Shown here: positions 46,459 through 48,394 of the stretch, in pieces
Position numbering within the stretch: position 1 is the stretch's first letter
Layout: the number at the start of each line of letters is the position of its first letter
From: Escherichia coli
Lineage (GTDB): Bacteria > Pseudomonadota > Gammaproteobacteria > Enterobacterales > Enterobacteriaceae
Direction: 5' to 3' (one strand)
NCBI RefSeq assembly: GCF_050320075.1
Contig: NZ_CP190018.1
DNA: 64,000 nt
Translations under genes and position numbers: made by a program
The notes under the pieces: model-generated
The model's input: the letters and a program-made list of their open reading frames with translations, nothing else
Told to the model about the DNA's origin: nothing
The model's database searches: none

Positions 46459-47106
<648 letters not shown>

Positions 47107-47147
47107 ATCCATCGTTGATGGTGCAGAACTTTAGTACACGATAAAAG

Positions 47148-47178
47148 CGGCTTCCTGACAGGAGGCCGTTTTGTTTTG
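47148..47178 (+). terminator. Intrinsic terminator after dps
   Basis: CGGCTTCC-TGACA-GGAGGCCG stem (one G.U) followed by TTTTGTTTTG. Confidence 0.7.
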
Positions 47179-47323
47179 TAGCCCGCCTCAACGCACTTAT
47201 TTAGTGCATCCATCTGCTATCCCCAGCTGGTTAAGTAAATTTTTTGTATCCACATCATCACACAATCGTTACATAAAGATTGTTTTTTCATCAGGTTTTA
47301 CGCTAAATAATCACTGTGTTGAG

Positions 47324-47366
47324 TGCACAATTTTAGCGCACCAGTTTGGTGCCCCAGAATGGTGCA
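47324..47366 (+). promoter_or_regulatory. NtrC (NRI) binding-site cluster upstream of glnH
   Basis: TGCACAATTTTAGCGCA and GCACCAGTTTGGTGCC (consensus TGCACCA-N3-TGGTGCA) plus a further GGTGCA half-site. Confidence 0.6.
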
Positions 47367-47439
47367 TCTTCAGGGTATTGCCCTATAAATCGTGCATCAC
47401 GTTTTTGCCGCATCTCGAAAAATCAATGAGTTGCAAAAC

Positions 47440-47455
47440 TGGCACGATTTTTTCA
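47440..47455 (+). promoter_or_regulatory. Candidate sigma-54 promoter glnHp2 (non-consensus -12)
   Basis: TGGCACGATTTTTTCA: -24 GG present, -12 region reads TC instead of GC; ~55 nt upstream of glnH ATG. Confidence 0.5.
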
Positions 47456-47494
47456 TATATGTGAATGTCACGCAGGGGATCGTCCCGTGGATAG

Positions 47495-48256
<762 letters not shown>

Positions 48257-48289
48257 TAACGCTACGCCTGTAAAGCGCACTGGCAGTTC

Positions 48290-48310
48290 CCTCTCCCCTC
48301 TGGGGAGAGG
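48290..48310 (+). other. Intercistronic hairpin between glnH and glnP
   Basis: CCTCTCCCC-TCT-GGGGAGAGG 9-bp stem; no U-tract. Confidence 0.45.
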
Positions 48311-48394
48311 ATTAGGGTGAGGGGCGCAAACCCGCTCCGGGGCCATTAATTACCCTGAATTTGATTATTTACACCACGGTAACAGGAACAACAT

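Follow-up and report, generated by a model that had tools for sequence, protein, structure and literature searches.

The spacer between dps and glnH in the analysed DNA, a 64-kb stretch of the E. coli chromosome that we call the window, almost certainly carries glnHp2, the sigma-54-dependent, NtrC-activated and IHF-assisted promoter of the glnHPQ glutamine ABC-transporter operon. This promoter is already known and well studied, and the reading of the locus is correct but ordinary; no observation spoke against it. The initial annotation had proposed an enhancer-dependent promoter of the glnHp2 type, and this was borne out by the identity of the locus, by sigma-54 and NtrC occupancy, by rpoN dependence and by conservation.

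The gene order in the window, ompX-rhtA-dps-glnHPQ-ybiO, is that of the E. coli chromosome, and the element studied lies in the dps-glnH spacer. The first gene under the promoter is glnH, followed by glnP and glnQ. The surrounding features are as follows.

Flanking genes: OmpX on the minus strand; GlnH, GlnP, GlnQ and YbiO on the plus strand; RhtA and Dps between.
47144-47179: intrinsic terminator of dps, a 13-bp stem followed by a T-run.
47510-48256, plus strand: glnH coding sequence, the periplasmic glutamine-binding protein, from the open reading frame list and the RefSeq annotation of matching E. coli records.

Of 5426 complete E. coli genomes, 5421 contain a match to the 461 bp around the element, with 95-100% identity and with dps and glnH annotated on either side. 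A 421-bp alignment of the dps-glnH region with MG1655 (window 47100-47520) showed 99% identity, with 8 substitutions and no indels. Because the spacer contains no indels relative to MG1655, published MG1655 coordinates can be transferred to it base for base. Two of the 8 substitutions fall inside the promoter region, and neither affects a consensus position: 47345 (T in the window, A in MG1655) lies in the central spacer of the NtrC site at -122, and 47427 (T in the window, G in MG1655) lies within the N4 of the IHF core; the published IHF-glnHp2 oligonucleotide, too, has T there. The comparison with the published glnHp2 sequence that the initial annotation had suggested thus came out in its favour: the MG1655 spacer is collinear, and both the published sigma-54 ChIP motif and the IHF oligonucleotide match. 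A search of the region against Rfam returned only sub-threshold scores, all on the dps terminator (for example ctRNA_p42d with 24.5 bits, the gathering score being 50), which most likely reflect chance hairpin resemblance. Downstream, a GC-rich palindromic repeat, CCCTCTCCCCTCTGGGGAGAGG...GGGTGAGGGG, occurs in the 138-bp glnH-glnP spacer (48257-48394); it gives rise to a spurious minus-strand open reading frame and resembles the dispersed boxC-type extragenic repeats of E. coli.

To place the regulatory elements in a comparative frame, we constructed a phylogenetic footprint anchored on the GlnH protein, using 80 Enterobacteriaceae loci from other species with 93-100% protein identity. We compared the 420 bp upstream of each glnH, and all 81 upstream sequences were distinct. 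Most upstream positions were poorly conserved, and the elements described below stood out as discrete conserved blocks at fixed distances.

The promoter itself comprises two features.

47440-47455, plus strand: sigma-54 element of glnHp2, TGGCACGATTTTTTCA, with GG at 47441-47442 (-26/-25) and TC instead of GC at 47453-47454 (-14/-13).
47467, plus strand: transcription start of glnHp2 (G), 43 nt upstream of the glnH ATG, from the numbering of Mao et al. 2007 and the indel-free alignment.

Compared with the consensus TGGCACG-N4-TTGCA, the element reads TGGCACG-ATTT-TTTCA, with exact spacing and a sole mismatch, T for G at 47453. The consensus GC doublet of the -12 element is therefore absent at glnHp2, where TTTCA replaces TTGCA. 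The description given in the initial annotation, a -24 GG with TC replacing the -12 GC, was accurate, 47453 being the lone mismatch; its end coordinate of 47456 was one base too far, as TGGCACGATTTTTTCA stops at 47455.

Sigma-54 occupancy of this site is well documented. In the E. coli sigma-54 ChIP-seq of Bonocora et al. 2015, site OS06 has the sequence CTGGCACGATTTTTTCA and a motif centre at 847290 (U00096.2), which falls on window 47447, halfway along 47439-47455. The same study carries the EcoCyc flag of an experimentally confirmed promoter for OS06 and reported that glnH was upregulated on sigma-54 overexpression; occupancy was modest, with a FAT value of 6 versus 17-22 for prpB, glnK and insH3. 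Genomic SELEX with RpoN-holoenzyme alone gave a peak in the glnH-dps spacer at 74% of the top peak. Deletion of rpoN lowered glnHPQ expression in CFT073 and EDL933, which represent two E. coli pathotypes, and an RpoN site is also located upstream of glnH in Yersinia. The glnH promoter of Salmonella Typhimurium (STM0830) has an orthologous, sigma-54-bound site, TGGCATGATTTTTTCATT, with the same TTTCA at -12; it differs by a C to T change at -22 and by divergence of the stretches that separate the conserved blocks. In Salmonella ChIP-chip, TGGCATGATTTTTTCATT showed a signal ratio of 16, and glnHPQ expression was 7.1-fold sigma-54-dependent.

The start position was obtained from two published sources. 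Mao et al. 2007 described a fragment spanning -289 to +63 of glnHp2; we mapped both of its primer ends to the window, and each gave +1 at 47467. Bonocora et al. 2015 predicted the start 19 bp downstream of the motif centre, at a distance of 44 to glnH, and this predicted start, 847271 (U00096.2), corresponds to window 47466. By published coordinates the start is thus 47467 or 47466, at the expected distance of about 12-13 nt from the doublet of the -12 element, a spacing on which the initial annotation had made its reading depend.

Across the 81 sequences, TGGCA (including GG), TT and CAT of the sigma-54 element were invariant, and TGGCA[CT]G-N4-TTTCA was found in 79 of the 80 loci. At -14, 80 of the sequences had T, one had C and none had the consensus G. 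This fixation speaks for a sub-optimal base that has been selected, not for a defect that is tolerated. The -12 element of glnHp2 is an outlier among the sigma-54 sites tabulated in the E. coli and Salmonella ChIP studies. Other bona fide sigma-54 sites also depart from the consensus at -12, such as pspA with TTGTA in the Salmonella ChIP-chip list; the GC doublet is typical of sigma-54 promoters, not obligatory.

Published descriptions and measurements alike class glnHp as a weak sigma-54 promoter. In a synthetic-enhancer study it was weaker than glnAp2, glnKp and nacp, and a distant enhancer gave no cross-activation. It could be argued that the conserved T at -14 does not act on polymerase binding but adjusts a subsequent step, for example closed-complex locking or activator selectivity, and that "weak -12" is a misnomer. 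The Salmonella ratio of 16, among the higher values listed, and the 74% holoenzyme peak in genomic SELEX indicate substantial occupancy, and a position that is almost always T and never G points to selection for the base. The modest ChIP-seq occupancy in E. coli and the weakness of glnHp in the synthetic-enhancer work, including its failure to be cross-activated, run against this explanation. Magasanik's group is also said to have found that the holoenzyme has low affinity for glnHp2 and that an up-mutation relieves the bend requirement. On balance we consider the tuning of a later step unlikely, though it deserves to be weighed, and we retain the reading of an intrinsically poor promoter that depends on DNA bending. 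Given the holoenzyme occupancy in Salmonella and in genomic SELEX, the weakness of the -12 element may not be simply weak binding.

Upstream of the sigma-54 element, three NtrC-like 17-mers, scored against the consensus form TGCACC-N5-GGTGCA, occur in a 13-bp register with 3, 2 and 1 mismatches.

47324-47340: NtrC-like string TGCACAATTTTAGCGCA, centre -135, 3 mismatches, which is chance level.
47337-47353: NtrC site CGCACCAGTTTGGTGCC, centre -122, 2 mismatches, upstream member of an overlapping pair.
47350-47366: NtrC site TGCCCCAGAATGGTGCA, centre -109, 1 mismatch, the best match, with a 4-bp overlap with the -122 site.

The initial annotation had named two overlapping NtrC palindromes, at 47324-47340 and 47338-47353. 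All of the strings it quoted are present, GCACCAGTTTGGTGCC being located at 47338-47353 and forming, as a 17-mer, CGCACCAGTTTGGTGCC at 47337-47353; the measured gap of 86 bp from its second palindrome to the sigma-54 element likewise agrees with its estimate of about 90 bp. The pair, however, was misassigned by one 13-bp step, and the best site, 47350-47366, was overlooked. Conservation favours 47337-47353 together with 47350-47366. A match to the consensus with at most 3 mismatches was found at -109 in 73 of the 80 loci and at -110 in a further 4, with GGTGCA 80-100% conserved. At -122, such a match was present in 64 of 80 at an ungapped, fixed distance from the sigma-54 element, with the GCAC and GTGC cores conserved. 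At -135, fewer than 4 of the 80 sequences had a match at this threshold, and the left half of the palindrome was essentially without information. The footprinted NtrC sites, those of Claverie-Martin and Magasanik, are reportedly an overlapping pair at -122 and -109. Conservation, together with these reported positions, points to 47337-47353 and 47350-47366 as the tandem pair, with centres at -122 and -109, and TGCACAATTTTAGCGCA is probably not a functional NtrC site.

Published binding data place NtrC at this locus at a coarser scale. NtrC ChIP-seq gave a 74.8-fold peak at glnHPQ that corresponds to window 47396-47476, about 80 bp off the site pair, which is within a resolution that cannot separate the sites. 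A genomic SELEX peak for NtrC at 847362, in the glnH-dps spacer, corresponds to window 47375, again at a resolution that cannot separate single sites. The promoter glnHp2 has been described as dependent on phosphorylated NtrC (Mao et al. 2007; Bonocora et al. 2015).

The anatomy first proposed, with the pair at -135 and -122, or its extension to three NtrC dimers on all three 17-mers (-135, -122 and -109), appears improbable. The strict 13-bp register of the three 17-mers and the half-site-like ends of the -135 string, TGCAC and GCGCA, would suit it, and two dimers do not suffice for an active NtrC oligomer. However, the 3-mismatch level of the -135 string was reached 27 times in the window versus 34 expected, its left half showed nearly zero conservation, and its matches in fewer than 4 of 80 loci compare with 64 at -122 and 77 at -109. 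In E. albertii, the -135 17-mer is degraded further. We therefore proceed with the pair at -122 and -109.

Considered singly, none of the motifs exceeds chance in 64 kb. The NtrC consensus gave 27 matches with at most 3 mismatches (34 expected) and 3 matches with at most 2 mismatches (3.65 expected) in the window, and the sigma-54 consensus gave 1 match with at most 1 mismatch (0.62 expected). We then scored the composite arrangement, defined as a sigma-54 match with at most 1 mismatch and two NtrC matches with at most 2 mismatches located 60-200 bp upstream on the same strand, and found it in none of 600 composition-matched random windows. The arrangement of the motifs is not due to chance. 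Although every motif alone occurs at chance frequency, we reject as practically inconceivable the view that the cluster is a fortuitous resemblance without regulatory role, given the absence of the composite from the 600 random windows, the occupancy by sigma-54 and NtrC, the rpoN-dependent expression and the conservation of the blocks in 80 species.

Between the NtrC enhancer and the sigma-54 promoter lies the IHF site of glnHp2.

47404-47437, plus strand: IHF site, with the core AATCAATGAGTTG at 47421-47433 (-46 to -34) and an A-tract 5' of the core.

The core is an exact match to WATCAANNNNTTR at 47421-47433, and the published 34-bp "IHF-glnHp2" sequence (TTTGCCGCATCTCGAAAAATCAATGA...) coincides with window 47404-47429. 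IHF has been detected at glnH by ChIP-qPCR and GeF-seq, and the primers of the ChIP-qPCR amplicon map to window 47358-47463. An IHF-induced bend is needed for looping at glnHp2 (Huo et al. 2009). In the 81-sequence comparison, the IHF block from -50 to -29 was conserved; most genera have AAACAA at the position of the core, and Escherichia has the consensus ATCAA. The title of the 1991 study by Claverie-Martin and Magasanik likewise implies a role of the IHF bend in the activation of glnHp2. Over the whole window, the exact core WATCAANNNNTTR was over-represented, with 8 occurrences versus 2.7 expected, a count reached in 1 of 100 shuffles.

Taken together, these elements would operate as follows. 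Sigma-54 RNA polymerase would form a closed complex on TGGCACGATTTTTTCA (47440-47455). When nitrogen is limiting, phosphorylated NtrC would occupy the overlapping -122/-109 sites (47337-47366) and then oligomerise. IHF bound at 47404-47437 (about -50) would bend the intervening DNA such that the NtrC oligomer touches the polymerase, and the oligomer would spend ATP to open the promoter, with transcription starting at 47467. The non-consensus -12 element (TTTCA) would make the promoter intrinsically poor, which is the accepted reason for its dependence on the IHF bend. In addition, a weak, CRP-helped sigma-70 promoter, glnHp1 (+1 at about 47316), would read through the whole enhancer. The order of these events and the causal link from the weak -12 element to the need for a bend are taken from the literature or are inferred; the identity of the locus, sigma-54 and NtrC occupancy, the IHF site, the start position, rpoN dependence and conservation rest on the present analysis or on the literature.

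The region upstream of the enhancer, the enhancer-promoter interval and the leader contain further elements.

47192-47208: putative distal NtrC-like 17-mer CGCACTTATTTAGTGCA, centre -267 of glnHp2 and about -116 of glnHp1, 3 mismatches in E. coli.
47244-47265, plus strand: degenerate CRP site of glnHp1, ttgTATCCacatcaTCACAcaa, centre -61.5 of glnHp1 (Mao et al. 2007).
47281-47316, plus strand: core of glnHp1 (sigma-70), with a likely -35 TTGTTT at 47281-47286, a likely -10 TAAATA at 47304-47309 and +1 at about 47316.
47378-47397: inverted repeat TTGCCCTATAAATCGTGCAT, centred near -80; its half-sites are of the NtrC type, and its spacer is one base longer than that of an NtrC site (TGCAC-N8-GTGCA).
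47475-47486, plus strand: candidate hairpin in the 5'UTR, GGGG-AUCG-UCCC, near-invariant, with a 4-bp stem, 9 nt into the glnHp2 transcript.

The +1 of glnHp1 at about 47316 was derived from the CRP centre at -61.5 (Mao et al. 2007), and it places the NtrC pair at about +30 and +43 of the glnHp1 transcript. A simple sigma-70 scan of 47050-47560 called no promoter. Mao et al. 2007 found binding of sigma-70 holoenzyme to glnHp1 to be very weak without CRP, and for this reason we did not count the miss against glnHp1. The -35 and -10 areas of glnHp1 formed conserved blocks, and at its CRP site the right half and the bases downstream of it were strongly conserved, the left half not. In other genera the block at 47244-47272 reads TTGTAATAATCACCTCACACAATCGTTAA and keeps only the right CRP half-site (TCACA), and the left half in E. 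coli, TATCC, differs from the consensus of the family. Another factor or an UP-like element may act at this block. In E. coli IAL7255, an IS element (an annotated integrase core domain protein; locus 1467-2540) lies between dps and glnH; its insertion point, equivalent to roughly window 47270, is a short way upstream of the -35 of glnHp1 and leaves both promoters separated from the CRP region and from the distal NtrC-like site.

Two of these elements resemble NtrC sites. The 17-mer at -267 follows closely on the dps terminator and precedes the -122 site by 145 bp. Within 1 bp of this position, 73 of the 80 loci had a match with at most 3 mismatches (mean about 1.6), a better match elsewhere than in E. 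coli; its GCAC and GTGC cores were at least 95% identical, and its flanks were poorly conserved. For the repeat at -80, TGCAC-N8-GTGCA with at most 2 mismatches was found at -79.5 in 48 of the 81 sequences and its N7 counterpart at -79 in 11, and GTGCA at 47392-47396 was at least 90% conserved. This repeat, which has the NtrC pair on one side and the IHF site on the other, has the consensus TTGCnnC...TTGTGCAA. It may be a low-affinity NtrC site of the "governor" type.

These observations allow a more speculative possibility, which we offer as a tentative idea that we would not favour at present. The elements at -267 and -80 and the pair at -122/-109 bracket glnHp1, and they could belong to a larger conserved NtrC architecture, in which a bridging oligomer of phosphorylated NtrC would loop out or block glnHp1 while activating glnHp2, thereby switching transcription from the first promoter to the second. 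The T at -14 would then have been selected for strict dependence of glnHp2 on the IHF-bent complex.

The candidate hairpin in the 5'UTR, which reads GGGG-AUCG-(U/C)CCC across the compared sequences, contains a conserved GATC and showed only GC-to-GU changes. No compensatory changes were found in the compared sequences and no Rfam family matched it, and we therefore do not claim a structured RNA element in the 5'UTR.

The locus is the same as glnHp2 of E. coli K-12 (Nohno & Saito 1987; Claverie-Martin & Magasanik 1991): the sigma-54 element and the frame of the IHF core are identical, and the NtrC sites are identical save for one spacer base. The promoter glnAp2 of the E. coli glnALG operon is likewise a sigma-54 promoter with an upstream NtrC enhancer. 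Its CRP-responsive sigma-70 companion, p1, also lies upstream and either overlaps the NtrC sites or reads through them. In contrast to glnHp2, where the NtrC sites overlap at a 13-bp offset, its two strong NtrC sites are separate, at -140 and -108 (Mao et al. 2007). It also differs in having a consensus -12 element and no obvious IHF site, and it works without IHF (Huo et al. 2009). The same order of enhancer, IHF bend and sigma-54 promoter is found at nifH and nifU of K. pneumoniae (activated by NifA), Pu of P. putida (XylR) and pspA of E. coli (PspF), all of which also need the IHF bend for productive looping (Huo et al. 2009). These promoters belong to other regulons with other activators, whereas the IHF core of glnHp2 is unusually near the promoter (-46 to -34).

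As a discovery, the reading carries little weight, because glnHp2 has served from about 1990 onwards as a model of sigma-54 transcription that depends on an enhancer and is assisted by a bend. What is gained is a corrected map of its elements together with an 81-sequence footprint, in which the NtrC pair falls at -122/-109 and the non-consensus base of the -12 element is fixed in Enterobacteriaceae. The conserved NtrC-like elements at -267 and -80 are candidates that may have a role in glnH promoter switching.
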